The position numbers were made by a program, and so were the translations under genes. Positions 1,034 to 55,507 of a stretch of 64,000 bases of DNA are shown here, one piece after another. The stretch spans positions 48,509-112,508 of the forward strand of contig CAWKHL010000004.1 of NCBI GenBank assembly GCA_963849525.1. Direction: 5' to 3'. The notes under the pieces are model-generated. The model was not told the DNA's origin. It ran no database searches and was given only the letters and a program-made list of their open reading frames with translations. Source of the DNA: an uncultured Acidobacteriota bacterium. GTDB taxonomy: Bacteria > Acidobacteriota > Vicinamibacteria > Vicinamibacterales > SCN-69-37. Within the stretch, counting starts at the first letter, position 1. Each line of letters opens with the position of its first letter.

Positions 1034-1645
1034 ATGACCTTTCACCCAACGATGGACTACGGCCGCGGGCATCACCAGTCGGCCCGCGCACTGCCAGAAG
1101 AGGGGCCGGCGTTCGTCTACACGGCCGAGCGGCGCGCCGAGCTGGACGAGATGCTCGCCCGGTATCCGCCCGACCAACGGAAGTCGGCGATTCTGGCCGC
1201 GCTCTACCTGGTCCAGGCGCAGCAGGGGTATCTGACGCGCCGCGGGATGGCGCACGTCGCCGAGGTGATCGGCTGCACCGCCGCCGACGTTGAGGACGTC
1301 GCGTCGTTCTACACGATGTTCTACACGCGGCCGGTCGGCCGGTACGTGATCCAGGTCTGCCGGACGCTCTCGTGCGCGCTCGCCGGCGCCGAGCGGGTGA
1401 CCGAGGCGCTGTCGAACGTGCTGGGGGTCGCGCCGGGCGGCACCGACGCGGCCGGCGAGTTCACCCTCGTCGAGGTGGAATGTCTCGGTGCGTGCGACCG
1501 CGCGCCGGTCGTGGGCGTGAACGATTTGTGGCAGGAGTGCCAGCACGCCGATGGCGTCCGGGCCCTCGTCGACGACCTGCGCGCCCGAGGCGACGCGGCC
1601 GTGACCGGGTGCCACTTGAGAGTGGAAAGACGCGAGACAAGTTAG
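1034..1645 (+). CDS. nuoE: NADH-quinone oxidoreductase subunit E (24-kDa, 2Fe-2S)
   Basis: 203-aa ORF. ..YPPDQRKSAILAALYLVQ..CRTLSCALAG..VECLGACDRAPV.. matches the NuoE thioredoxin-like 2Fe-2S cysteine pattern. Lies between nuoD and nuoF. Exact start uncertain. Confidence 0.9.
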   Translation: MTFHPTMDYGRGHHQSARALPEEGPAFVYTAERRAELDEMLARYPPDQRKSAILAALYLVQAQQGYLTRRGMAHVAEVIGCTAADVEDVASFYTMFYTRPVGRYVIQVCRTLSCALAGAERVTEALSNVLGVAPGGTDAAGEFTLVEVECLGACDRAPVVGVNDLWQECQHADGVRALVDDLRARGDAAVTGCHLRVERRETS

Positions 1646-1700
1646 AAGTCAGAAGACAGAAGTTGGAACTTCTGACTTCTGGCTTCTAACTTCCGACTTC
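1641..1700. repeat. Inverted pair of AGAAGNN heptamer arrays (imperfect ~24-bp hairpin)
   Basis: gttagaagtcagaagacagaagtt and aacttctgacttctggcttctaac are reverse complements with 2 mismatches. The nuoE stop TAG (1643-1645) lies inside the first unit. Confidence 0.85.
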
Positions 1701-1711
1701 TTTCATCGCCA

Positions 1712-3028
1712 GTGCCATTTATGGATCCAATCCTGACCCGCGACGTTCGTGAGCCCAACAGCTACACCCTCGACTTCTATATGAAGCACGGGGGCGGCTA
1801 TGGCGCGCTCAAGAAGGCGCTCGGCATGACGCCCGACGCCGTCGTCGACGCGGTGAAGCAGTCGGGGCTGCGCGGGCGGGGCGGCGCGGGGTTTCCGACC
1901 GGCATGAAGTGGCAGTTCGTCGACAAGAAGTCGGCCAAACCGAAGTACATCTGCTGCAACGCCGACGAGAGCGAGCCCGGCACGTTCAAGGACCACGTGC
2001 TGATGGAGCGCAATCCGCACCTGCTCTTCGAGGGCTGCCTCATCGGCTGCTACGCGATTGGCGCGAAGGTCGCCTACATCTACATCCGGGGCGAGTTCTA
2101 CCACGTGCAGCAGGTGCTCGAAGCCGAGCTGGCCAAGGCTCGCGCGGCGGGACTCATCGGCAAGAACATCTTCGGCAGCGGCTTCGACTGCGACATCTTC
2201 ATCCATCGGGGCGCCGGCGCGTACGAAGCGGGCGAGGAGACCGCGCTCCTCGAGTCGCTCGAGGGCAAGCGCGCGCAGCCGCGGCTCAAGCCGCCGTTTC
2301 CCGCCGTGGCGGGCCTCTACGGCTGTCCAACCGCGGTGAACAACGTCGAGACGCTGTGCAACGTGCCCCTCATCATCGACCGCGGCGCCGAGTGGTTCGC
2401 CGGGATTGGCCCGGAGAAGAACAGCGGCCCGAAGCTCTACTGCCTGAGCGGCCACGTGCGGAAGCCCGGCGTCTATGAGGCGTCGATGGACGTGACGCTC
2501 CGCGACCTGATCTATGACGATCGGTTCGGCGGCGGCATCCGCGGCGGCCACGCGCTCAAGGCCGTCATTCCCGGCGGCTCCTCCGTGCCCGTGCTGCTCC
2601 CCGACCAGCTCGACATTCCCGCCAGCTTCGATGGCGTGGCCAAGGCCGGTTCGATGCTCGGCTCGGCCGGCATCATCGTCATGGACGAGACGACGTGCAT
2701 GGTGTGGGGGGCGGTGAACCTGCTGCATTTCTACAAGCACGAGTCGTGCGGCAAGTGCACGCCGTGCCGCGAGGGCTGCGACTGGCTCCATCGCCTGCTG
2801 CTGAAGATCGAGCGGGGGGAGGGCGAGACGCGCGACCTCGACCTGCTGCTCTCGGTCGCGGGCAACATCCTCGGCAAGACGCTCTGCGCGTTCGGCGACG
2901 CCGCCGCGACGCCGGTGCTCTCGACCGTCAAGACGTTCCGCGCCGAGTACGAGGCGCACATCCGCGAGGGCCGGTGCACCGTCCCCGCGCCGTGGCGGGC
3001 CGACGCGGTTCTGGCGGGAGCGCACTGA
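1712..3028 (+). CDS. nuoF: NADH-quinone oxidoreductase subunit F (51-kDa, FMN/NADH-binding)
   Basis: 438-aa ORF. GLRGRGGAGFPTGMKW (FMN/NADH site), ADESEPGTFKD and ESCGKCTPCREG (4Fe-4S) motifs. Confidence 0.95.
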   Translation: MPFMDPILTRDVREPNSYTLDFYMKHGGGYGALKKALGMTPDAVVDAVKQSGLRGRGGAGFPTGMKWQFVDKKSAKPKYICCNADESEPGTFKDHVLMERNPHLLFEGCLIGCYAIGAKVAYIYIRGEFYHVQQVLEAELAKARAAGLIGKNIFGSGFDCDIFIHRGAGAYEAGEETALLESLEGKRAQPRLKPPFPAVAGLYGCPTAVNNVETLCNVPLIIDRGAEWFAGIGPEKNSGPKLYCLSGHVRKPGVYEASMDVTLRDLIYDDRFGGGIRGGHALKAVIPGGSSVPVLLPDQLDIPASFDGVAKAGSMLGSAGIIVMDETTCMVWGAVNLLHFYKHESCGKCTPCREGCDWLHRLLLKIERGEGETRDLDLLLSVAGNILGKTLCAFGDAAATPVLSTVKTFRAEYEAHIREGRCTVPAPWRADAVLAGAH

Positions 3029-3260
3029 GAAAGTTAGAAGTTGGAAGACAGAAGTGAGAAGTAAGTGAGAAGAAAGAAGTAAAACGTGAGAAGTGAGAAG
3101 ACAGAAGTTGGAAGTACGTGAGAAGTGACGGGCGGAACGATGAGAGTTGGGCAAGGATCTCGCGATGAGGGGAGAGCGGTGAAACGAATGTTGGCGGCGG
3201 GAGGCGGGATGCGGCGGCGCACGACTTCTCACTTCTGTCTTCTAACTTTTGACTTTTAAC
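3029..3260. repeat. AGAAGNN heptamer arrays in inverted orientation around a ~93-nt unique core
   Basis: Left array 3029-3129 (gttagaa gttggaa gacagaa gtgagaa ...). Right array 3223-3260 (acttctcacttctgtcttctaactttt...) is its reverse complement type. Fills the whole nuoF-nuoH spacer. Confidence 0.85.
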
Positions 3261-3265
3261 GTGCC

Positions 3266-4291
3266 ATGACTGCCACCCTAATCGCCCAGCTCGTCGTCAT
3301 CGGGTTCACGTTCTTCATGCTGCTGAACTCGGCGGCGATCCTCGTCTACATGGAGCGCAAGGTCGCGGCGTTCATCCAGCAGCGGTACGGCCCGTACCTG
3401 GTCGGGCCGAAGGGCCTGATGCAGCCGCTCGCCGACATCATCAAGCTCATGTTCAAGGAAGAGCTGCGGCCGAAGTCGGCCGACGCGCTGCTCTTCTACC
3501 TGGCGCCGATCCTGTCGGCGACGGCCGCGTTCGCCGCCTTCTCGGTCATCCCGTTCGGCGCCGACACGACGTTCTTCGGGCTGCTGTCCCAGCCCGTGCA
3601 TCTGGCCGCCGCCGACGTGAACGTCGGCATCCTGGTCATCTTCGCGATCACGTCGATGGGCGTGTACGGCATCGTGCTCGCCGGCTGGAGCTCGAACAGC
3701 AAGTACTCGCTGCTCGGCGGGCTCCGGTCGTCGGCGCAGATGATCAGCTACGAACTGTCCTACGGCCTCTCGTTTGCCGCCGTGATCATGCTGGCCGGCT
3801 CGCTCTCGCTGCACACGATTGTCGACCAGCAGGCGGGCTACTGGCTGCACGTGATTCCGAAGTGGTTCATCTTCATCCAGCCCCTCGGGTTCTTCATCTT
3901 TCTCACGGCGGGGGTGGCCGAGACGAACCGGGCGCCCTTCGACTTCCCCGAAGCGGAGCAGGAGCTGGTCGCCGGCTACCATACCGAGTACAGCTCGATG
4001 AGCTTCGCGCTGTTCTTCCTGGCCGAGTACGTGAACATGGTCACGGTCTCGGCCGTGGCGACCGACCTGTTCCTCGGCGGGTGGCACGGGCCGTTTCTCC
4101 CCGAGTGGCTGGGGTGGATCTGGTTCCTCGTGAAGGTCGGCGCGCTGCTGTTCTTCTATATTTGGATGCGCTGGACGCTGCCGAGGTACCGGTACGACCA
4201 GCTGATGGAGTTCGGCTGGAAGTGGCTGCTGCCGCTGGCCGTGGTGAACCTGCTGGTGACGGCCGGCGTGGTCATCTACATGGGCGTCTAG
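3266..4291 (+). CDS. nuoH: NADH-quinone oxidoreductase subunit H
   Basis: 341-aa polytopic ORF with the ND1/NuoH signature ..GVAETNRAPFDFPEAEQELVAGYHTEYSSM.. Confidence 0.95.
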   Translation: MTATLIAQLVVIGFTFFMLLNSAAILVYMERKVAAFIQQRYGPYLVGPKGLMQPLADIIKLMFKEELRPKSADALLFYLAPILSATAAFAAFSVIPFGADTTFFGLLSQPVHLAAADVNVGILVIFAITSMGVYGIVLAGWSSNSKYSLLGGLRSSAQMISYELSYGLSFAAVIMLAGSLSLHTIVDQQAGYWLHVIPKWFIFIQPLGFFIFLTAGVAETNRAPFDFPEAEQELVAGYHTEYSSMSFALFFLAEYVNMVTVSAVATDLFLGGWHGPFLPEWLGWIWFLVKVGALLFFYIWMRWTLPRYRYDQLMEFGWKWLLPLAVVNLLVTAGVVIYMGV

Positions 4292-4295
4292 AGAC

Positions 4296-4823
4296 GTGGC
4301 GATTATGGGTGGGCTTCTCTTCTGGATCTTCGCGGTCGTGTCGGTGGTGGCGTCGGTGCTCGTCGTCGGGCAGCGCAACCCGATGTACAGCGTCCTGCTG
4401 CTCATCGTCTCGTTCGGCGCGCTGTCGGGGCTCTACATCCTGCTCGGCGCGCCGTTCGTCGCCGCCATTCAAATCATCATCTACGCCGGGGCCATCATGG
4501 TCCTGTTCCTCTTCGTCGTCATGCTGCTGAACGTGCCGACCGAGACGCCGCCGTCCGGCGAGCGGCTGCGGCTGCTCGGCGGCGCGGGCCCGCGGCACTT
4601 CGGGGCGGTGCTGTCGGTCGTGCTGGCCGTCGAGTTGGGCGTGGCGCTCTGGCAGCTGCAGGCGACGCCGCTGCCGTCCGGACCGGCCGGGCAGGCGGTC
4701 TCGGTGTTCGAGATCGGCGTGCGGCTGTTCCGGACCTACGCGTTCGCGTTCGAGGCGACGTCGGTCCTCATTCTCGTCGCGATGGTCGGCGCGATCGTGC
4801 TGGCGCGAAGGGAAACGCGATGA
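4296..4823 (+). CDS. nuoJ: NADH-quinone oxidoreductase subunit J
   Basis: 175-aa hydrophobic ORF. ..NPMYSVLLLIVSFGALSGLYILLGAPFVAAIQIIIYAGAIMVLFLFVVMLL.. is ND6/NuoJ-like. Starts 4 nt after nuoH. Confidence 0.9.
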   Translation: MAIMGGLLFWIFAVVSVVASVLVVGQRNPMYSVLLLIVSFGALSGLYILLGAPFVAAIQIIIYAGAIMVLFLFVVMLLNVPTETPPSGERLRLLGGAGPRHFGAVLSVVLAVELGVALWQLQATPLPSGPAGQAVSVFEIGVRLFRTYAFAFEATSVLILVAMVGAIVLARRETR

Positions 4824-4863
4824 GAAGTTCGAAGTTCGAAGTGTCGAAGTTCGAAGTGCTGAC

Positions 4864-11178: not shown

Positions 11179-11385
11179 TTAGCTTGGCTTGGTGACGTTA
11201 CCGGCCTGCGGCCCCTTGGGACCGTCGACGATCTCGAACTCGACCGCTTGGCCTTCTTCGAGCGTCCGGAATCCGGCCCCCTGGATTGCCGAGAAGTGAA
11301 CGAACACGTCGTTCCCTCCCTCACGCTCGATGAATCCGTAGCCCTTGGCGTTGTTGAACCACTTGACCTTGCCCGTGATGCGCAT
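11179..11385 (-). CDS. cspA: Cold-shock protein (CspA family)
   Basis: 68 aa. [34 protein letters not shown].. contains the RNP1 (KGYGFI) and RNP2 (VFVHF) motifs. Confidence 0.95.
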
Positions 11386-11553: not shown

Positions 11554-11731
11554 GGCCATTCATTGGGCCATTTGGTCATTGAGGCAGTTGACCATTGACT
11601 CGCAATGTGCGGCAGTTGCTGGGGGGCGGTAGCTCATGGACGGATAGCGCCGAGTAGCTATAACACGGCAGCCAGGTTCAATGCCCCAATGGCTCAATGG
11701 CCCAATGGCCCAATGGCCCAATGGCCCAATA
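11554..11731. repeat. Inverted 8-nt arrays (CCATTGRG / CCCAATGG family) around a ~78-nt core
   Basis: Left: ggccattcattgggccatttggtcattgagg.. (11554-11601). Right: ccccaatggctcaatggcccaatggcccaatggcccaatggcccaat (11679-11731). Lies in the cspA-purH divergent spacer. Confidence 0.8.
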
Positions 11732-13340: not shown

Positions 13341-13632
13341 AGTCATTGGGCCATTGGGCCATTGAGCCATTTGGCCATTGGGCCATTGAGCCATTGAGTC
13401 ATTGAGTCATTGAGTCATTGAGTCATTGGGCGATTGAGTCGTTGAGTTATTGAGTGATCGGCTGTTGGCTATTGGTAACTGAAGGGCATGTGTGCCCAGC
13501 GGCACTGGTTGATGTCAACTTCGCCGACGACCACACAGCGGACAGCGAGGCCCAGGTGCCCCAATACCCCAATGACCCAATGGCCCAATGGCCCAATGGC
13601 CCAATGACCCAATGACCCAATGGCCCAATAAC
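13341..13632. repeat. Large inverted pair of 8-nt arrays (NCATTGRG x ~14 / CCCAATGR x ~9) around a ~100-nt core
   Basis: 13341-13455: tcattgggccattgggccattgagccatttgg..gtcattgagtcattgagtcattgag.. 13558-13630: gccccaataccccaatgacccaatggcccaatggcccaatgg.. The core contains the small hairpin gggcatgtgtgccc. Confidence 0.9.
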
Positions 13633-13652: not shown

Positions 13653-15306
13653 GTGAAGCGCTTTCTCAGTCCGCTCCTTGTCCTGCTCGCGCTGGCGATC
13701 CCGGTGTTCTTCGTGTGCCTGGGCGCGAATTCGATCTGGGACGCGAATGAGGCGTTCTATGTCGAGACGCCGCGGCAGATGATCCTGTCGGGCGACTACA
13801 TCAATCCGAGCTTCAACGGCGCGCCGCGGTTCAACAAGCCGGTGCTGAGCTACTGGATGGTCGCGGGACTGTACCGGCTGTTCGGGACGTCGGTGGTCGT
13901 CGAGCGGGTCGGCATCGCCCTCGGCGCGCTGGGCATCGTGCTCGCGGCCTTCCTCATCGGCCGCGCGCTGCGATCGACCCGCACGGGAGTGCTCGCGGCG
14001 CTGGTGGTCGCCACCGCGCCCCAGGTCGTCTGGTTCGCGCGGCGGATCTTCATCGACGTCTATCTCACGCTGTTCACCTCATTGGCGCTGGCCTGCTTCG
14101 TGCTCGCCGAACGGCACGCGGCCCATCGCCGGCGCTGGCTGGTCCTCATGTACGTCGCGCTCGGGCTCGGCGTGCTGACGAAGGGCCCGGTGGCCGTCGC
14201 GCTGCCGGGGCTGGCGTGCGTGCTGTGGCTCGCGTCGAGCCGCCGGCTCGGCGACCTCAAGCGCTTCATGCTCGTGCCCGGCGCGCTCGATTGTCCTGGC
14301 CATTGTGGTGCCCTGGTATGCGGCCGTCTATGCACAGCATGGATGGACGTATATCGTGAGCTTCTTCATAGGCGAGAACCTCGGACGCTATACGAACGCG
14401 ATGACGCCGGGCGGCCGCGGCGTGCTGTTCTACATACCGGTTCTTCTGGGCGGACTGTTTCCATGGGCACCGCTCGTGCTCGTGCCGCTGTGGCAGGTGG
14501 CGGCCGAGTGGTGGCGGCCGTCGGCCACTGGCGGCGGCCGCGCCGCGCTGCGCCGGCTGCTCTGGCTGTGGATCGTCGTGTTCGTCGCGGTGTTCTCGTT
14601 TTCGCGAACCAAGGAAGACCTCTACATCTTTCCCGTGGTGCCCGCGGTGGCCGCGCTCGTCGCCGACGCGCTCGTGGAGCGCGTGGAGGGCGGACGCGCG
14701 CGCGCGCTGGGCGCCGTCTTCATCGTGGTGTGCGGGCTGTGCCTCGTCGTCGCGCCGGCGGCATACTGGCTGTTCGGTCCGTCGGCCGGCTACTACGCGA
14801 TGGGCGGCGCCTCCACGTTCGCCGTGGTCCTGGGAACGACCGGGCTCGCGGCCGGCCTGTTCTGGCTGCGCGGTCGCCCTGCGACGGGGATCGCGGCGCT
14901 TGGCGCGGGGTTCGTCGTGCTGAACTACCTGTTCGTGGCGCAGGTGCTGCCCCAGGCCGAGCGGTCAAAGCCCGTGCCGCCCCTGGCGCGGACGCTTGCG
15001 GCCGACGCGGCGCCGGATGCACGTGTCGGCTCGTTCAACATGGGGCTCCAGAGCTTTGTGTACTACTCGGGCCGGTCCGCGATCGCGGAGATCGACTCGC
15101 TCGACGAGGCGCGCACGTTCTTCGCCGGCGACCGCGAAGCATGGGCGATCATGGGCGGCGACGAGTGGACCGAGGTTCAACGCGCCGTCCCGGGAACCTG
15201 CGTCGCCGCCGAGCGCCATCTCTCGATCTTCGACGCGAAGCTCGGCGACATCATCACCCGCACCCCGCCGCCGGCGGTGCTGCTCGTGAAGAACAGGTGC
15301 CATTGA
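13653..15306 (+). pseudogene. Glycosyltransferase family 39 (ArnT/PMT-like GT-C), one +1 frame break
   Basis: N-terminal part: ..ANSIWDANEAFYVETPRQMILSGDYINPSFNGAPRFNKPVLSYWMVAG..LKRFMLVPGAL in the frame of 13653. It continues IVLAIVVPWYAAVYAQHGW..LLVKNRCH* in the frame of track ORF 14305..15306. Junction near 14289. Confidence 0.85.
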
Positions 15307-15573
15307 GCCATTGGGTCATTGGGCCATTGGGTCATTGGGTCATTGGGTCAATGGGCCATTTGGGTCACTAAGACAAACTACGCCGAAGTCACCCGTAGCC
15401 AATTAATGAGACGCGTCGAACCCAATGGGTCGATTGGCTCAATGGCCCAATGGCTCAATGACCCAATGACCCAATGACCCAATGGCCCAATGGCCCAATG
15501 GCTCAATGGCCCAATGGCCCAATGGCCCAATGGCCCAATGGCCCAATGGCCCAATGACCCAATGACCCAACGG
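15299..15573. repeat. Inverted 8-nt arrays (CCATTGGG / CCCAATGG family) between convergent genes
   Basis: Left 15299-15368, right 15421-15573 (~19 units), with a ~50-nt core. The arrays abut or overlap the stop codons of both flanking genes. Confidence 0.9.
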
Positions 15574-15574
15574 C

Positions 15575-16774
15575 TCATCCCCCGATCTTCGGCAGCCACG
15601 GGCCGAGGGCGAGGCGCAGGACGATGAGCGTCGCCCAGGTGACGGCTGGCAGGGCGGGGATGGCGGCGTCGAGGCGGCGGATGGTCTGGCGCACCCAGCC
15701 CCAGGACTGGTAGGCGACGACGGCGCCGGCCGCGCCGAGCAAGTAGGTCGCCGAGAACGCGTAGCGTTCCGCAAACCGACTGACGCCGCTCAAGAGCAGC
15801 GCGGCGAACGCCGTGAAGCCGAGGACGAACACCAATCCGCGCCGCGCCGGCGATCGGTCGACCGCCGGCCGATCCGTCGGGCCCGCGCCGCGCGTCCACG
15901 CGAGCCACAGGAGCGCGAGGCTCCACGGCGCCGGCTGATAGAGCAGGCGCGTGAGGTAGAAGGCGACGTGCCGAAAGAACGTGCCGGCCTGGGCGATGGG
16001 CGTCGAGACGGTGACGGGGGCCAGCTGGCGGTTCCAGTAGGCCAGCCAGAACGAGTCGCCCGTGATGCGGATGTAGGAGATATCGTAGGCCGCCGCGGCG
16101 ACGAACATGGCCGCGCCGGCGACGAGCCAGGCGACCACGGGCCGCGCGCGCGACCCGCCGCCGGGATTGACCAGGATCCACAGCCCCGCGGCCGCCAGGA
16201 TGAGCGCCACGAACGCGCCTTTGATCACCAGGCCGCCGGCGAACCCGCAGGCGACGAGCGCCACCCACCACCACGAGCGCTTGACGCCCAGCAGGCCCAA
16301 GAGCGTCGCGAGCAGACAGACGAGCATCGGATATTCGTGGTTGTCGCGGATGCGGAACACGAAGGCGAGCGGCATGATCTGCAGCAGGACGAGGAGGGCG
16401 CGTCCTTCTTCCGCCGACGTCAGGCGGCCCGCCAGTTGGCCTGCGAGCAGGAGCGCCAGCAGGCCGGCGCCAATGCCGAAGACGTACGCGCCCTGCACCG
16501 GGGGGAGGCCCAGGCGTCCAAGGGCGGCCGGCACCCAGAAGAGGCCGGCCGGGTTCTCGATGAAGTACCCGGATAGATGCGCGTCGGGCCAGAGCCCCCA
16601 CCATTCGGGCGACGTCCATCGATTGAGGGGCTGGGTCGAGAGCTTGGCCGACAGATCGGCGTAGAGCGCCGAGTCCGGGTCATGGCTCTTGAACTTCATC
16701 GCGACCAGCAGCGCGGCGACCGCGATGAAGGCGATCACCCACACCACCCGATCGCGGCGCGAGAGCAGCCGCAT
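15575..16774 (-). CDS. Putative GT-C family membrane glycosyltransferase (ArnT/PMT_2-like)
   Basis: Real start MRLLSRRDRVVWVIAF.. at 16774 inside track ORF 15575..17032. About 11 TM segments and an early DPDSALYADLS motif typical of GT-C enzymes. Sits in the envelope gene block. Confidence 0.55.
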   Translation of the reverse strand: MRLLSRRDRVVWVIAFIAVAALLVAMKFKSHDPDSALYADLSAKLSTQPLNRWTSPEWWGLWPDAHLSGYFIENPAGLFWVPAALGRLGLPPVQGAYVFGIGAGLLALLLAGQLAGRLTSAEEGRALLVLLQIMPLAFVFRIRDNHEYPMLVCLLATLLGLLGVKRSWWWVALVACGFAGGLVIKGAFVALILAAAGLWILVNPGGGSRARPVVAWLVAGAAMFVAAAAYDISYIRITGDSFWLAYWNRQLAPVTVSTPIAQAGTFFRHVAFYLTRLLYQPAPWSLALLWLAWTRGAGPTDRPAVDRSPARRGLVFVLGFTAFAALLLSGVSRFAERYAFSATYLLGAAGAVVAYQSWGWVRQTIRRLDAAIPALPAVTWATLIVLRLALGPWLPKIGG

Positions 16775-24879: not shown

Positions 24880-24885
24880 GGCGTC

Positions 24886-24951
24886 AAGTTGGAAGGCAGA
24901 AGCCAGAAGTCAGAAGTGACTTCCGACTTTTGGCTTCTCACTTCTAACTTG
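24886..24951. repeat. Inverted AGAAGNN heptamer arrays (imperfect ~30-bp hairpin) after prs
   Basis: caagttggaaggcagaagccagaagtcagaagtgac / ttccgacttttggcttctcacttctaacttgg. About 26 of 32 positions are complementary. Confidence 0.8.
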
Positions 24952-24964
24952 GAGAGGTTCACTC

Positions 24965-29004: not shown

Positions 29005-30177
29005 GTGCCAGCCGTGAGCCGCATCGAGCCCGTCGTGGCCGCGCGCCCGACGGTGGCGGTCGTCGATCTTGACGCGATTGCGGCCAACGTGCGCGCGCTC
29101 AGGGCGATGGTGGCGTCCGAGCGGGAGCCGGCGGGCGCGCGGCCGCCCGGCGTCATTGCCGTGCTCAAGGCGAACGCGTACGGCCACGGCGCCATGCGTG
29201 TCGGCCCGGCGCTCGAATCGGCCGGCGCGGCGATGCTGGCCTGCGCGGATATCGAGGAAGGCGTGGCGCTGCGCCGCGCGGGCGTGACGATTCCGATTCT
29301 CGTCTTCGGCGCGCTCAGCATCAGCGACCTCTCCGGCGTGTTCGAGCAGCGGCTGACGCCGACCATCTCCTCGCCGGCCGCCGCGCGGGCGCTCGAACAG
29401 GCCGCACGCGAGCGCGGCGTGCGGCTGCACTGCCATCTCAAGATCGACACGGGGATGAACCGGCTCGGCTTCCGCCACGACAACCTCGCGCGGACGATGC
29501 CGCCCGTGGTCGCGAGCCCGCACCTCGAGATTGACGCGGTCTACACGCACTTTGCCACGGCCGACGAGCCCGAGAGGGCGTTTCTCGACGAGCAGCGCGC
29601 GCGGTTCGACCGGGCGCGCGCGGCGCTGGGGGCGATGGGCGTGCGCGGCATCGGCGTCCATGCCGCGAACTCGGCCGCGCTCCTGCGCGATACGCGGACG
29701 TGGTACGACTGGGTCCGGCCCGGCCTGCTGCTCTACGGCGTCGTCCCGCCGCCGCTTGGCGCCGAGCCGCTGGCGCTTCGCCCGGCGTTGTCGCTCGTGA
29801 GCCGCGTCGTCGCCGTCAAGGGCCTGCGTCCGGGCGAGGGGACGGGCTACGGCTTGCGCTGGACGGCTGACTCGCCCCGATCGATCGCCATCGTGCCCGC
29901 CGGCTACGCCGACGGGCTGGATACGCGCCTGGCCAACCGCGCGTCGGTGCTCATTGGCGGCCGCCGCGCGCCGATCGTCGGGTCGGTGTGCATGGACATG
30001 ATCGTGGTTGACGTCACGGACCTCGGCGTCTCGCCCGGCGATGAAGTCGTCATCATCGGCCGCCAGGGCCGCGAAGAAATCACCGCCCGAGAAGTCGCCG
30101 CCGCGATTGGCGCGATCCCGTGGGAGATCCTGTGCCGGCTGGGCAGTCGGATTGAAAGACGGTACGAAGGAAGTTAG
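29005..30177 (+). CDS. alr: Alanine racemase
   Basis: 390 aa. ..VLKANAYGHGA (PLP-lysine motif)..KIDTGMNRLGF..GYADG..VCMDM.. The gene ends ..AGT-TAG inside the first unit of the repeat array. Confidence 0.9.
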   Translation: MPAVSRIEPVVAARPTVAVVDLDAIAANVRALRAMVASEREPAGARPPGVIAVLKANAYGHGAMRVGPALESAGAAMLACADIEEGVALRRAGVTIPILVFGALSISDLSGVFEQRLTPTISSPAAARALEQAARERGVRLHCHLKIDTGMNRLGFRHDNLARTMPPVVASPHLEIDAVYTHFATADEPERAFLDEQRARFDRARAALGAMGVRGIGVHAANSAALLRDTRTWYDWVRPGLLLYGVVPPPLGAEPLALRPALSLVSRVVAVKGLRPGEGTGYGLRWTADSPRSIAIVPAGYADGLDTRLANRASVLIGGRRAPIVGSVCMDMIVVDVTDLGVSPGDEVVIIGRQGREEITAREVAAAIGAIPWEILCRLGSRIERRYEGS

Positions 30178-30756
30178 AAGTTAGAAGACAGAAGTTGGAA
30201 GTGACAGAAAGAAGTAAGGCGTTCGGGCGGAGTCACTCGACCGGCGTGCGCAGCTTGCGGACGGTGGTCGTGAGGATGGCCGTGAGTTGGTTGCACTCGT
30301 CGAGGACCGCTTCGAGTTGCGCCGCGACCCGAGGCTGGTCCGAGGCGATCAGACGCAGCCAGTAGTGACACTCCCGGCTCTCCCGTAGGGCGATGGTGTA
30401 CCGTGCGGCGAGATCGCGTCGCGAGTAGGCCGACTGCGCCTCCGCAATGTTGGCGCCGATCGACGTACCCGACCGAAGCATCTGTTCGATGAGATGACGC
30501 GGCACATTGGTTTGCCGGTTTGCCGCGCGACCTCGCGTGAGAGCGCCAGAAGCCGCTCGGCAAGGCGAAAGCTTCGCGTCGGAAGGGGCTCTGCTATTGT
30601 CATGCCTTGATGAATTGTCGGAGAGATTGGGGCACGCCGGGAGCCCATCGGGCGTTTCATGTACATGAAGTGCTGCCCGCCCGGAGGTTGGGGAACTTGG
30701 CGCTTGCGTCTTGGCACCTCCGGCTTCTAACTTCTGTCTTCTAACTTCTAACTTCC
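30169..30756. mobile_element. Candidate IVS-like or MITE-like cassette: 34-nt inverted repeats bracketing a four-helix-bundle gene
   Basis: IR-L 30169-30202 ggaagttagaagttagaagacagaagttggaagt. The reverse complement of IR-R (30723-30756) is ggaagttagaagttagaagacagaagttagaagc, identical at 32 of 34 positions. The 520 nt between them holds the antisense gene 30233-30603. No transposase present. Confidence 0.4.
30233..30603 (-). pseudogene. Four-helix-bundle protein (23S rRNA intervening-sequence protein family), frame broken once (-1 or +2)
   Basis: N-terminus MTIAEPLPTRSFRLAERLLALSREVAR.. runs in the frame of ATG 30603. The C-terminus ..VPRHLIEQMLRSGTSIGANIAEAQSAYSRRDLAARYTIALRESRECHYWLRLI.. 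is in another frame. Junction around 30505-30530, at the direct repeat caaaccggcaaacc. Confidence 0.7.
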
Positions 30757-30757
30757 C

Positions 30758-34931: not shown

Positions 34932-35557
34932 CCGGGGAACCGTTGGCGCTCGACGTGGCCGCCGACGTCGACGCGATCGTCGTGCCCGCGTGGTGCGTGG
35001 TCGAGGACGTCGTCGTGCGCGAACGCGACCTGCGGCTCGACGGTCCGCTGCGCGAGGCCGCCGCGGCGATGCGAGCGGGCCGCGAGCCGGCCGAGCTCAC
35101 CGCGGCCGTCCGCATGATGTACAAGCGCGTGGGGCTCGACCCGACCAAGACGCGGCCGTCGTCGGAAGCCCTGCTCCGGCGCGTGCGGCGCGGAGACGAG
35201 CTGCCGCGCATCAATAGCCTGGTGGACATCATCAACTGGAGCTCGCTGCTGTCGCAGCTGCCGTTCGGCCTCTACGATTGCGCCGCGATTCGCGGGGCCG
35301 TGACGCTGCGCCTGGGCCGCGCGGGCGAGCACTATGCGGGCATTCGCAAGGACACGGTGCACGTCGCCGGCCGGCTGACGCTGGCCGATGCGGAGGGCCC
35401 TTTCGGGAACCCCACGTCGGACTCGGCCCGAACCATGGTCACGCCAGCCACCACGCGGGCGCTGGTCGTCATCTTCGCGCCCGCCGACACGCCAGCGCGA
35501 ACGCTCGAGGCCGTGATGGCGGCGACGAAGACGAGGATTGAAACCTACTGTCGTTAG
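34928..35557 (+). CDS. B3/B4 tRNA-binding domain protein (PheT-beta related)
   Basis: GTG 34928 overlaps the plsC stop. ..YKRVGLDPTKTRPSSEALLRRVRRGDELPRINSLVDIINWSSLLSQLPFGLYD.. is characteristic of the family. Confidence 0.7.
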   Translation: MTGEPLALDVAADVDAIVVPAWCVVEDVVVRERDLRLDGPLREAAAAMRAGREPAELTAAVRMMYKRVGLDPTKTRPSSEALLRRVRRGDELPRINSLVDIINWSSLLSQLPFGLYDCAAIRGAVTLRLGRAGEHYAGIRKDTVHVAGRLTLADAEGPFGNPTSDSARTMVTPATTRALVVIFAPADTPARTLEAVMAATKTRIETYCR

Positions 35558-35679
35558 GGGTTCCGGGGTTCCGGGGTTCCGGGTACTCGGGTTCGGTGGC
35601 CGCGAACCTCGGCACCGAGAACCTCCGGAACCCTCGAACCGGAACCCGGGCACCCGGGAACCTCGGAACCTCGGAACCC
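35558..35679. repeat. Inverted 8-nt arrays, GGGGTTCC / GGAACCYC family
   Basis: ggggttccggggttccggggttccgggtactcgggttcgg ... gaacctccggaaccctcgaaccggaacccgggcacccgggaacctcggaacctcggaaccc. Starts directly at the stop TAG 35555-35557. Confidence 0.9.
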
Positions 35680-35697
35680 TTGTCCTACTAGAATCAA

Positions 35698-38348: not shown

Positions 38349-38377
38349 CAAGATAGAGGGTTGTGGGCGACAGACTT

Positions 38378-38423
38378 CCAACTTCTGTCTTCTAACTTCT
38401 AACTTCTAACTTCTAACTTTCAC
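38378..38423. repeat. CTTCTAA heptamer array (single orientation)
   Basis: cttccaacttctgtcttctaacttctaacttctaacttctaactt ends 1-5 nt before the rlmB GTG. Confidence 0.85.
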
Positions 38424-42754: not shown

Positions 42755-42793
42755 GGAAGTTTGAAGTTGGAAGCCAGAAGTTAGAAGTTCAAG

Positions 42794-43410
42794 GCGCCGC
42801 GCGAAGCGCGTAAGCGAGCGGGAGTCGGGCGCCGCGAGCCTTGAGAAGAGACGCCCGCGGACGCGAAGCGCCGCGGCCAGCCCAAGGGGCGCCGCGCGAA
42901 GCGCGTAAGCGAGTGGGAGTCGGGCGCCGCGAGTATTGAGAAGGGACGCCCGCGGACGCGAAGCGCCGCGGCCAGCCCAAGGGGCGCCGCGCGAAGCGCG
43001 TAAGCGAGCGGGAGTCGGGCGCCGCGAGTATTGAGAAGAGACGCCCGCGGACGCGAAGCGCCGCGGCCAGCCCAAGGGGCGCCGCGCGAAGCGCGTAAGC
43101 GAGTGGGAGTCGGGCGCCGCGAGTATTGAGAAGAGACGCCCGCGGACGCGAAGCGCCGCGGCCAGCCCAAGGGGCGCCGCGCGAAGCGCGTAAGCGAGTG
43201 GGAGTCGGGCGCCGCGAGCCTTGAGAAGAAACGCCCGCGGACGCGAAGCGCCGCGGCCAGCCCAAGGGGCGCCGCGCGAAGCGCGTAAGCGAGTGGGAGC
43301 CGGGCGCCGCGAGTATTGAGAAGGGACGCCCGCGGACGCGAAGCGCCGCGGCCAGCCCAAGGGGCGCCGCGCGAAGCGCGTAAGCGAGTGGGGGTGGGGC
43401 CCCGCGAGCA
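42794..43410. repeat. 95-bp tandem repeat, ~6.5 copies (GC-rich intergenic repeat family)
   Basis: Unit gcgccgcgcgaagcgcgtaagcgagYgggagtcgggcgccgcgagNNttgagaagRgacgcccgcggacgcgaagcgccgcggccagcccaaggg. Units start at 42794, 42889, 42984, 43079, 43174, 43269 and 43364 (the last partial). Confidence 0.95.
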
Positions 43411-43847: not shown

Positions 43848-43984
43848 GACGCTGGCCACGGGCCCAGGGCCTCAGGCCCCGGACAGCCCGACCCGAGTGG
43901 CCTAGTGCCTAGTGCCTAGTGCCTGGAAGCGGAAGTCGTAGATGTGGCAGGCCTTCGGGCCGCGATGACCACAGGAGAACGGTA

Positions 43985-44692: not shown

Positions 44693-44836
44693 CGAGGCCC
44701 AGGGGCCTCCGGCCCTGGGCCGCGCCGACAGCCGCGGGCGCGAGGCGCCGCGGCAAGCCCGTCAGGGCGTCGCGCGAAGCGCGGGAGCGAGCGGGGGTGG
44801 GGCCCCGCGAGCCCTGAGAAGAGTTGGCAAAGAGAC

Positions 44837-45370
44837 ATGGCCGTCAGTAGAGCCGAAAAAGAAACGGAATTGCAGGAGCTGGAAGCGGCGTTCCGCCAGG
44901 CGGACACCGCCGTGCTCGTCGACTATCGCGGCGTGAGCGTGCCCGACGTGACCGAGCTGCGCCGGCAGATCCGCGCGGTGGGCGCGACCTATCGGGTCGT
45001 CAAGAACACGATCGCCAAGCGGGCCGCGTCCGGGACGTTGCTCGCCTCGCTCGACGCGCACTTCATCGGGCCGACGGCCGTGGTCTTCACGAACACCGAC
45101 CCGGTGGCGATGGCCAAGGCGCTCACGGCGTTCGCCAAGAACGCGCCGACGATGAGCATCAAGGCGGCCGTGGTGCAGGGGCAGACGGTCGCCGCCGGCG
45201 CGGTTGCCGACCTGGCCAGCCTGCCGGGCAAGCCCGAGCTGTATGCGAGGCTGCTGTCCGTCATGCAGGGGCCGGCGCAGCAGTTGGTGACGGTGCTCTC
45301 CGCCGTGCCGCGCGACCTGGTGACGGTGTTGGCGCAGGCGGAGAAGAAGAAGGCGGAGACGGCAAGTTAG
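44837..45370 (+). CDS. rplJ: 50S ribosomal protein L10
   Basis: 177 aa. ..[33 protein letters not shown].. Ends AGT-TAG inside a repeat unit. Confidence 0.93.
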
Positions 45371-45499
45371 AAGTGGGAAGCCAGAGGTTCGAAGTGTGGC
45401 GGGCGGTTGCCCGCCCCCTGGCGCCAGTCGTTGAGCGATCGACCTCTGGTTTTTGACTTCGAACTTGACCGAACGCGAATTTTTTCGAGGAGACAGACA

Positions 45500-45927: not shown

Positions 45928-46105
45928 TCGATCGGCCCACGGTCATCGACCGACCGCCCTGGGCGGCCGGTCGCGCAGTCGTTTCGCTCGGCCGATGCGA
46001 TGGGCCCCCTGGGTCGATCCGGATCGGCCGATGGGCCGATGTCGATCGGTCGATGGCTCGATCGCCAGGCGTGTTGACAGGTCGATGGGTCGATCGGCCG
46101 ATGGG
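45928..46105. repeat. 8-nt periodic CGAT-containing array (TCGATSGN units) upstream of rpoB
   Basis: ..ggccgatg ggccgatg tcgatcgg tcgatggc tcgatcgc.. and gtcgatgggtcgatcggccgatggg. Contains many GATC/TCGA palindromes. Confidence 0.75.
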
Positions 46106-46142
46106 TTGACGCTGGTGCTCTTGTCTCAGTAGAGGTCACTGA

Positions 46143-50464
<4,322 letters not shown>

Positions 50465-50484
50465 GCGCTGACGCTGGAGCTGGA

Positions 50485-50588
50485 CAAGTTTTGAAGTGAG
50501 AGGCCAGAGGTTGGAAGTCGGAGGGGCGGCCGGTCGAGTGCTGGCCGGGCGCGCCCTTCGAACTTCTGGCTTCTAACTTCGAAGTTGA
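50485..50588. repeat. Inverted AGAAGNN-type arrays (imperfect ~30-bp hairpin) in the rpoB-rpoC spacer
   Basis: caagttttgaagtgagaggccagaggttggaag versus the reverse complement of cttcgaacttctggcttctaacttcgaagttg. Most mismatches are G-U compatible. Confidence 0.75.
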
Positions 50589-50604
50589 CGAGGACCACCA
50601 ACAG

Positions 50605-55507
<4,903 letters not shown>

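Follow-up and report, generated by a model that had tools for sequence, protein, structure and literature searches.

What are the tandem arrays of AGAAGNN heptamers (NNCTTCT on the complementary strand) that separate neighbouring genes in a 64-kb stretch of an uncultured Vicinamibacterales genome (Acidobacteriota; contig CAWKHL010000004.1), and do they act on the RNA of the operons in which they lie? We analysed this whole stretch, referred to here as the window. By their sequence organization, the arrays are the terminal inverted repeats (TIRs) of a dispersed family of palindromic elements of this genome. The identity of the family, its hairpin potential, its insertion relative to related genomes and its link to genes of the Pfam family PF05635 are established. 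We further consider it probable that these elements are passengers at gene junctions, comparable to intervening sequences (IVSs) or to MITEs (miniature inverted-repeat transposable elements), that are co-transcribed with the operons around them and are probably cleaved by RNase III. An initial annotation of the window had described the arrays as period-7 repeats in operon spacers; it included neither the dispersed repeat family nor the gene that one of the pairs (alr|radA) encloses.

That annotation had listed nine sites, and period-7 AGAAGNN/NNCTTCT arrays were present at all of them (9/9) by sequence inspection and Tandem Repeats Finder (TRF). The pattern RGAAGNNRGAAGNNRGAAG (three consecutive RGAAGNN units) had 22 matches in the window as against 0.00 in 100 dinucleotide-preserving shuffles, and a direct count of GAAG/CTTC strings spaced 7 nt apart gave 3-11 units per array. 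The gene names given earlier were borne out by NCBIfam (nuoD/E/F/H/J/K, prs, rplY, alr, radA, gltX, rlmB, nusG, rplK/A/J/L, rpoB and rpoC), and these genes form the runs nuoD-E-F-H-J-K, prs-rplY, alr-radA, gltX-rlmB and tuf...nusG-rplK-A-J-L-rpoB-rpoC. The arrays were also AT-rich islands as described, with a GC content of 42% against 68% for the window. The statement that they occupy most intra-operon spacers was too strong: AGAAG arrays were found in 9 of ~33 spacers of at least 40 nt, a total that reflects our own reading of the open reading frame (ORF) and repeat lists. Another ~6-7 spacers contained other period-7/8 arrays (GGTTCCGG, CCATTGGG, GATCGGNN and GCCTAGT).

Definition of the element family

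When placed in the same orientation, the 16 arms of the window share the sequence (C)AAGTT-AGAAGTN-AGAAG(A/C)C-AGAAGTN-RGAAGT, with an inner GGGCG wherever a core is present. The arm consensus of the family is YAAGTN-AGAAGTG-AGAAGMC-AGAAGTT-RGAAGT, again followed by an inner GGGCG; in copies from metagenome contigs the 5' end reads YAAGTN-AGAAGTG-AGAAGCC-AGAAGTT-AGAAGT-nACTGGGCGCTTGTC, after which come a variable core and the inverted 5' end. The family 20-mer AGAAGMCAGAAGTTRGAAGT occurred in at least 120 metagenome contigs. An nhmmer profile built from 55 metagenome ends, with the window sequence excluded, recovered 15 arms at 8/9 window sites (E values from 2.6e-11 to 3e-3), and nuoJ|nuoK was the sole unmatched site. 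The arrays are best described as a defined repeat of ~35-45 nt that comprises four degenerate heptamers, not as free-running microsatellites.

The elements have a consistent polarity. Where an arm has a partner, the AGAAG arm lies 5' and the CTTCT arm 3' in 58 cases, with 1 in the reverse arrangement, and among array pairs within 120 nt the AGAAG-to-CTTCT order outnumbered its reverse by 48 to 1. The purine-rich, G-rich arm was 5' in every window pair. Between the arms lies a 3-4-nt loop, a GC-rich core of ~30-100 nt or a whole PF05635 gene. An assembly artefact was considered and ruled out, because the family is found in at least 120 independent contigs and isolate genomes contain comparable cassettes. 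For annotation purposes, a repeat family fills many operon junctions of Vicinamibacterales, and a simple profile is enough to mask it or follow it.

Elements in the window

The members of the family and the unmatched nuoJ|nuoK array are as follows.

1638..1703 (+): nuoE|nuoF hairpin; AGAAG arm ~1638-1666, CTTCT arm ~1669-1703, 4-nt loop
3029..3260 (+): nuoF|nuoH element; doubled 5' arm 3029-3080 + 3084-3129, GC-rich core 3130-3222, 3' arm 3223-3260
4822..4858 (+): nuoJ|nuoK array (GAAGTTC)x5; self-complementary via TTCGAA, z -3.6, no family-profile match
24884..24952 (+): prs|rplY hairpin; CAAGTT...AACTTG, ~30 paired bases, 3-nt loop
30163..30214 (+): alr|radA 5' AGAAG arm; contains the alr stop TAG 30175-30177
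30233..30603 (-): alr|radA PF05635 gene; between the arms, antisense to alr and radA
30723..30757 (+): alr|radA 3' CTTCT arm; profile match, predicted to pair with the 5' arm in a stem
38375..38420 (+): gltX|rlmB solo 3' arm; (CTTCTAA)x6 just upstream of the rlmB GTG, two profile matches
42755..42791 (+): nusG|rplK solo 5' arm; begins at the nusG stop, best profile match (E 2.6e-11)
45363..45472 (+): rplJ|rplL hairpin; 5' arm 45363-45398, GC hairpin core 45399-45437, 3' arm 45438-45472
50483..50592 (+): rpoB|rpoC hairpin; 5' arm 50483-50520, GC hairpin core 50521-50551, 3' arm 50552-50592

Most arrays had been thought to be inverted pairs. This held at six sites, where the predicted stems are ~24-38 bp; at nuoJ|nuoK the single array is self-complementary, and gltX|rlmB and nusG|rplK have solo arms. 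The predicted folding energy was -38.3 kcal/mol (z -5.0) for the nuoE|nuoF hairpin, whose profile matches are 1636-1673 and 1699-1664, and -46.3 kcal/mol (z -5.9) for prs|rplY, where both arms match the profile (E 2e-10 and 3e-9). For rplJ|rplL and rpoB|rpoC the values were -65.2 kcal/mol (z -4.6) and -75.7 kcal/mol (z -5.7), respectively, with profile matches at both sites. At nuoF|nuoH, 3029-3062 is predicted to pair with 3224-3260 in a 34-bp stem (-91.1 kcal/mol, z -6.9), while the alr|radA stem spans ~520 nt between its arms (z -6.3). Folding was no better than in shuffled sequences at gltX|rlmB, where no partner arm was found (z -0.3), and at nusG|rplK, where the AGAAG arm stands alone (z +1.2).

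The stems of all six window hairpins span the entire spacer between stop codon and start codon. Stop codons are found either within the 5' strand or at a distance of 0-20 nt from the base of the stem, and the start codon lies 2-28 nt past the 3' strand. The stops of nuoE (TAG 1643-1645), alr and rplJ (TAG 45368-45370) are the TAG of GTTAGAAG and fall within the 5' strand. At nuoF|nuoH, the nuoF stop ends at 3028 and the nuoH ATG is at 3266; at alr|radA, the 3' arm stops 2 nt short of the radA ATG (30758). No Shine-Dalgarno sequence was present between the arm and the start codon of nuoH, radA (with its short interval) or rlmB. At rpoB|rpoC, the rpoB ORF stops at 50378 and another frame is open to TAG 50461-50463 just ahead of the hairpin (window 50376-50465); the true rpoB stop is uncertain, and the stop-to-stem distance at this junction is therefore uncertain as well.

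Comparison of gene junctions with relatives

The nearest genomes were metagenome-assembled genomes (MAGs) of Acidobacteriota of the order Vicinamibacterales, with NuoH 87% identical to that of OY969918.1 and RplL 88% identical to that of JBKJQX010000130. Orthologous sites differed in the presence of elements, and nuoF|nuoH, nuoD|nuoE, nusG|rplK, rpoB|rpoC and alr|radA were empty in relatives. The nuoF|nuoH junction, which is TGAgATG in the relative L001, measures 237 nt in the window, and the ATGA overlap of nuoD and nuoE in L001 corresponds to 341 nt. The distance between nusG and rplK is 0-86 nt in relatives and 667 nt in the window; alr and radA, which overlap or are 20-45 nt apart in L323-L325, are separated by 580 nt. 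No arrays were found at rpoB|rpoC in five relatives (L321-L325), where the window has an AGAAG hairpin element. In the rplJ|rplL spacer, L322 has a GGGCTTN hairpin, L320 has a GATTNNN array and the other relatives have nothing. Because the junctions of relatives are compact or overlapping at most of these sites, we regard most of the window sites as insertions. At nuoE|nuoF, a hairpin of the same family is present in the same spacer of L001.

The arrays had been said to lie between co-directional genes of the same operon. They do lie in junctions of conserved operons, but no enrichment in co-directional spacers was found: in a census of 34 occupied spacers of high-GC metagenome contigs, 25 (74%) were co-directional, compared with 169/239 adjacent gene pairs (71%; P = 0.84). 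The window alone cannot test this point, because nearly all its genes are on one strand. Divergent spacers were weakly depleted (1/34 versus 33/239, or 14%; P = 0.09).

These comparisons bear on the view taken in the initial annotation, in which the hairpins would be regulatory RNA elements selected by the host for stability, processing or coupling in the nuo and rplKAJL-rpoBC operons. Host selection would be consistent with stems that run exactly from stop to start codon, and with nuoH, radA and rlmB having no Shine-Dalgarno sequence after the arm, so that their translation must depend on the element context. It would also fit the nuoE|nuoF hairpin that the window and L001 have in common, the presence of the alr|radA cassette in two further metagenome contigs (L481 and L477) with an arm abutting the radA ATG, and the unrelated heptamer hairpins or arrays at rplJ|rplL of L322 and L320, which look like convergent recruitment. 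We nevertheless consider this explanation unlikely. Most sites are absent from relatives, the family is also found in convergent spacers and shows no co-directional enrichment, and there was no covariation or G.U signal (see below). Furthermore, the near-identical copies number in the hundreds and lie at unrelated loci, as expected of an element that spreads and not of regulators specific to a locus.

The gene-bearing form

The gene between the alr|radA arms encodes a four-helix-bundle protein of PF05635, annotated as '23S rRNA intervening sequence protein' and Avd-like (Pfam E 2.4e-15). Its reading frame shifts once near 30500, which is probably a sequencing error, since 11 frameshifts are present in rpoC of this window. 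L481 and L477 carry the orthologous cassette, intact, at the alr|radA junction. Among the three copies (window, L481 and L477), dN/dS was 0.17-0.21, with dS near saturation, which indicates that the protein has been maintained. The extended 5' end of L481, including ACTGGGCGCTTGTC, is the same as in gene-less copies. In the family-bearing contigs (680 kb), all five PF05635 genes (5/5) abut an arm. The other window copies are without an ORF. The gene-less forms may relate to the gene-bearing form roughly as MITEs relate to a full element, or as ORF-less IVSs relate to ORF-bearing ones.

The closest solved structure to the window protein is 2RLD, which was deposited with five chains. PF05635 proteins are pentamers related to Avd, the nucleic-acid-binding accessory protein of diversity-generating retroelements. 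We also observed that in L481 (7270-7347) the PF05635 frame continues into the 3' CTTCT arm and so gains a ...LLLLTSGFLLLT tail, and that the 5' arm of L414 is traversed by the open frame; arms can thus supply coding sequence to the passenger protein.

PF05635 genes and heptamer arrays in other phyla

PF05635 genes were sampled at random from many phyla with a back-translated IxANIAEG pattern, which gave 120 loci, 111 of them with the gene by an iterated hidden Markov model. Inverted repeats (score of at least 14) bracketed 52 of the 103 PF05635 genes with usable flanks and none of 99 random intervals of the same length in the same loci (0/99); 30 of the bracketed genes scored at least 18. The bracketing repeats were tandem arrays with a period of 7 in 40/52 cases and of 8 in the others, and their units varied by genome (GGTAATG, GATTAGG, AGTTACC, GGGAGTC and others). 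The 5' arm contained more G than C in 44/51 (P = 1e-7). Bracketed genes lay between co-directional neighbours in 30/37 cases (27 sense, 3 antisense), between convergent neighbours in 7 and between divergent ones in 0.

PF05635 genes bracketed by AGAAGNN arms were present in Ignavibacteria (L115, L188) as well as in contigs with a GC content of 44-52% (L407, L414, L497), and the window octamer AGTCATTG bracketed one in Mucilaginibacter rigui. A Mucilaginibacter isolate contig contained two cassettes that are 93% identical across arm, leader and gene and lie at different junctions, each right after the upstream TAG. The copying of entire cassettes to new junctions is thereby directly evidenced.

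With these results, the arrays can be weighed against plain heptamer microsatellites produced by replication slippage, in which case the inverted pairs would be incidental. Slippage would account for the period of 7 and the variable unit number of 3-11. Heptamer simple sequence repeats (SSRs) are over-represented in the intergenic DNA of many bacteria (PMC4692102), AGAAGNN x4 arrays occurred in at least 120 contigs of many phyla, and unit number differs among Coxiella strains (PMC4990558). Even so, slippage as the whole explanation appears quite improbable, because units are position-specific and more than 50 metagenome copies share the YAAGT termini and inner GGGCG, orientation is biased 48:1, the arrays bracket one gene family (52/103 versus 0/99) and whole cassettes, including their arms, were duplicated to new loci. 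Slippage probably alters unit number secondarily.

The pentameric nature of PF05635 proteins raises another explanation, namely that the arrays are multivalent DNA or RNA binding sites for a ring protein, with PF05635 as the candidate and one heptamer per subunit, serving mobility or a TRAP-like regulation of flanking genes. Arms usually have 4-6 units, 2RLD has five chains, the proteins are related to the nucleic-acid-binding Avd, and the gene inside the arms is under purifying selection; a heptamer-binding protein was also proposed by MacGregor for TAACTGA repeats (PMC4679880). However, two PF05635 subfamilies, the 'SFxDLxVW...' type (L115, L188, L414, L497) and the type of the window, L481, L477 and L407, are only 19-30% identical where aligned and both lie between AGAAGNN arms, so the unit does not track the protein. 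In addition, the 64-kb window has 1 PF05635 gene as against ~15 arrays of at least four unit families. We therefore rate this explanation as improbable.

Returning to passenger elements, a broader generalization may be considered, although we put it forward tentatively and regard it as rather doubtful. Inverted period-7/8 arrays together with PF05635 genes might form one widespread, undescribed class of 'operon-riding' cassettes that settle between the stop and start codons of well-expressed operons, rely on the host for transcription and excise themselves via host RNase III. The 23S IVS would then be a special case resident in rRNA, and gene-less hairpins, including the present family and perhaps part of the bacterial heptamer excess and the cyanobacterial short tandemly repeated repetitive (STRR) sequences, would be landing sites for the cassettes or derivatives that are not autonomous; binding of the arms by the pentameric protein may aid copying. 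If true, this would connect the excess of heptamers in bacterial intergenic DNA, the role of 23S-IVS/four-helix-bundle proteins outside rRNA and the origin of IVS elements. Our search, which did not extend to subscription-only literature, found no publication that links PF05635 genes generally to heptamer-array hairpins or describes this acidobacterial family.

Predicted fate of the hairpins in RNA

Under the passenger-element reading, copies have arrived, by insertion or copying, precisely where relatives have compact or overlapping junctions. They would be transcribed within the host operon, each folding into a stem of ~24-38 bp, the base of which would bring the upstream stop and the downstream start within 2-34 unpaired nt. 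RNase III cleavage is the default fate of near-perfect double-stranded RNA of at least 22 bp. By analogy with IVS and Correia stems, cleavage of these stems by RNase III is a reasonable expectation, and would split the operon transcript; in gene-bearing copies, it would free the passenger mRNA. The host might tolerate the elements because either cleavage, leaving a short unstructured leader, or the juxtaposition of stop and start would keep the downstream gene translatable. In the latter case, a closed stem would place the terminating ribosome beside the start codon. More speculatively, arm order might matter for Rho, which loads on exposed C-rich, G-poor single-stranded RNA: as the G-rich arm is transcribed first, the C-rich, G-poor arm, a potential Rho loading site, might never be single-stranded.

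The suggestion of an RNA-level role therefore survives in part. Long stems, and the fact that the closest known element types are RNase III substrates, make processing, stability or coupling plausible, but the sites are not conserved host regulatory features.

Scans of the window found no terminator-like site and no promoter consensus at any array. There was no Rfam family at the arrays; six tRNAs were the only RNA genes found in the window, with no rRNA. The match of AGAAG/CTTCT to the Shine-Dalgarno/anti-Shine-Dalgarno sequences was weak (4/5, with a central mismatch). Intrinsic terminators or attenuators between cistrons would likewise appear as strong stems in transcribed spacers, and the rplL-rpoB region is attenuated in E. 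coli. For the present hairpins this function is extremely improbable, as no U-tract follows any stem, the terminator scan was empty at the arrays and stems lie upstream of the essential co-transcribed genes nuoH and rpoC.

Several results weigh against a mobile passenger element whose RNA is cut by RNase III. Arms of the same element paired hardly better than arms of different elements (median 18 versus 17, P = 0.13), although this covariation result carries no information, given that the consensus is common to all arms. Stem mismatches comprised 15 G.U, 11 A.C and 43 others (not oriented to host transcription), without an excess of G.U. As both the pairing and the mismatch tests were null, there is no sign that RNA pairing has been selected for beyond what the family consensus provides. 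The solo arms at gltX|rlmB and nusG|rplK are unable to form a hairpin. Some copies, namely nuoE|nuoF (also in L001) and the alr|radA cassette, are old and common to relatives, as a host function would predict too.

Mobility and the link to PF05635 face further difficulties. Window and metagenome copies showed no target-site duplication, only a palindrome extending outward (NYAAGT...ACTTRN) without a direct repeat, and no transposase was associated with the arms. The cores of gene-less window copies had only chance words of up to 12 nt in common with the cassette interior, which lends no support to a derivation by internal deletion. Most AGAAG arrays in other phyla are gene-less: PF05635 genes lay within 8 kb of 2/120 of them, as against 1/80 unrelated nuoH loci. 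Co-occurrence within 8 kb is thus no evidence, and the signal resides in exact bracketing. Lastly, the 23S signature was found at 0/92 sampled PF05635 loci (rRNA operons are often missing from MAGs and assemble poorly); with none of these loci in 23S genes, the name of the family is misleading.

Other repeats and features of the window

The window contains at least four heptamer-armed palindromic families, of which AGAAGNN is one. The other period-7/8 repeats are as follows.

13341..13632 (unstranded): (GYCATTGG)n/(CCAATGRC)n octamer hairpin; arms ~76 nt, between purH and a glycosyltransferase gene
11560-11730, 13341-13632, 15299-15577: CCATTGGG/AGTCATTG octamer copies; inverted arrays
700-774 and 35557-35680: GGTTCCGG-type arrays
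46010-46110: GATCGGNN array
43900-43924: GCCTAGT array

These families are mostly inverted pairs in which the G-rich arm comes first and arms reach up to 76 nt, and the spacers that they occupy may be co-directional, convergent or divergent. Between nusG and rpoC, nearly all spacers contained some repeat. A cold-shock gene (CspE/CspA-like, E 2e-30) at 11179-11385 (-) adjoins the 11560-11730 octamer hairpin; Csp proteins have been proposed as heptamer-repeat binders (PMC4679880), but this proximity is probably a coincidence.

A second repeat family consists of GC-rich long tandem repeats, 76 bp x2.6 in nuoD|nuoE (784-977) and 95 bp x6.5 in nusG|rplK (42793-43408), each preceded by a short-period array. 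Both end in GCGAG(C/T)GGGGGTGGGGCCCCGCGAG, a motif that is also found just upstream of rplJ (44740-44815) and lies 10-40 nt ahead of the next start codon each time.

Compared with the RpoC of a relative, rpoC (50605-54561) was broken into 12 frame segments by 11 frameshifts, mostly +1, whereas rpoB was one intact ORF. As rpoC is essential yet frame-split, we attribute this to local indel errors in the assembly (perhaps a long-read MAG), and single frameshifts in the window should therefore not be read as pseudogenes.

The nuo cluster (1712-4823 region) runs nuoD-E-F-H-J-K-L-M-N, without nuoG or nuoI between nuoF and nuoJ, and L001 (4680-6100) likewise passes from nuoF directly to nuoH; the missing nuoG and nuoI are presumably encoded elsewhere. 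In a Terriglobales MAG (L052, JBAVVP010000348; 1215-1665), a PF05635 cassette whose arms are inverted period-8 (GTAATTTN)n arrays separates nuoF from nuoG. As this genome belongs to another acidobacterial class, a different arm family has independently colonised the same operon. AGAAGNN arrays of cyanobacterial, planctomycete and other contigs (L087, L098, L180, L102) lay beside or nested in CCCAATG, GGGTTCA, AGTAGGT or CTACTAC arrays, resulting in concentric inverted arrays, as if elements insert into each other.

Comparison with known systems

Enterobacterial repetitive extragenic palindromic (REP) sequences and bacterial interspersed mosaic elements (BIMEs) are very abundant extragenic palindromes in transcribed 3' or inter-cistronic regions; they stabilise mRNA and are under-represented in divergent promoter spacers. 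REPs are short, GC-rich, imperfect palindromes mobilised by REP-associated tyrosine transposases (RAYTs). The present family differs from them in its AT-rich periodic arms, and no RAYT was seen.

TAACTGA repeats of marine Beggiatoaceae, Cyanobacteria and Bacteroidetes comprise 2-6 heptamers directly upstream of start codons, where they replace the ribosome-binding site, including that of ribosomal-protein and rpoC-like genes; their cross-phylum distribution suggests transfer, and 169 sets are direct and one is inverted (PMC4679880). The solo CTTCT arm before rlmB looks similar, but the standard form of our family is an inverted pair, unlike TAACTGA. Heptamer SSRs such as the cyanobacterial STRR sequences, Xanthomonas GGGAATC and Nostoc GGGGAYT are intergenic and length-variable among relatives, and some form stem-loops as inverted pairs (PMC4692102). 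They resemble the arrays in having at least three tandem 7-nt units in non-coding DNA. However, they have been described as SSRs, some of which form G-quadruplexes, whereas the elements of the window have a fixed four-unit arm, conserved termini and a gene cassette.

Correia elements of Neisseria (also known as Correia repeat enclosed elements, CREE, or Neisseria miniature insertion sequences, NEMIS) are the closest gene-less analogue. They are palindromes of ~100-150 bp with TIRs of ~26 bp or more, present near genes in hundreds of copies and co-transcribed, and their RNA is bound by RNase III and either cleaved or protected, which alters expression of neighbouring genes (PMC2649163, PMC10969869, PMC3184786). 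Like these elements and MITEs in general, our family has many dispersed copies with common TIRs (9 sites in 64 kb; at least 120 contigs) and varies in presence at individual sites. It differs in that no TA or other target-site duplication was seen and no promoter-like ends were found, in that its TIR consists of heptamer units, and in that the ORF-bearing relative encodes a four-helix-bundle protein and not a known transposase.

The IVSs of 23S rRNA, known from Coxiella burnetii, Leptospira and others, provide the other comparison. ORF-less IVSs exist in Salmonella. In contrast to 23S IVSs, which occupy helix 9, 25 or 45, the window copies lie between protein-coding genes in mRNA operons; the family is high-copy and mostly without an ORF, and the ORF in the window is antisense to the host genes. 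In Coxiella, AGAAGA and then tandem GACAGAT heptamers, which vary in number among strains, precede the S23p ORF, and the 28-bp terminal stem is cut by RNase III at the first heptamer (PMC4990558). What the two systems have in common is terminal inverted repeats that form a long stem around a PF05635 gene.

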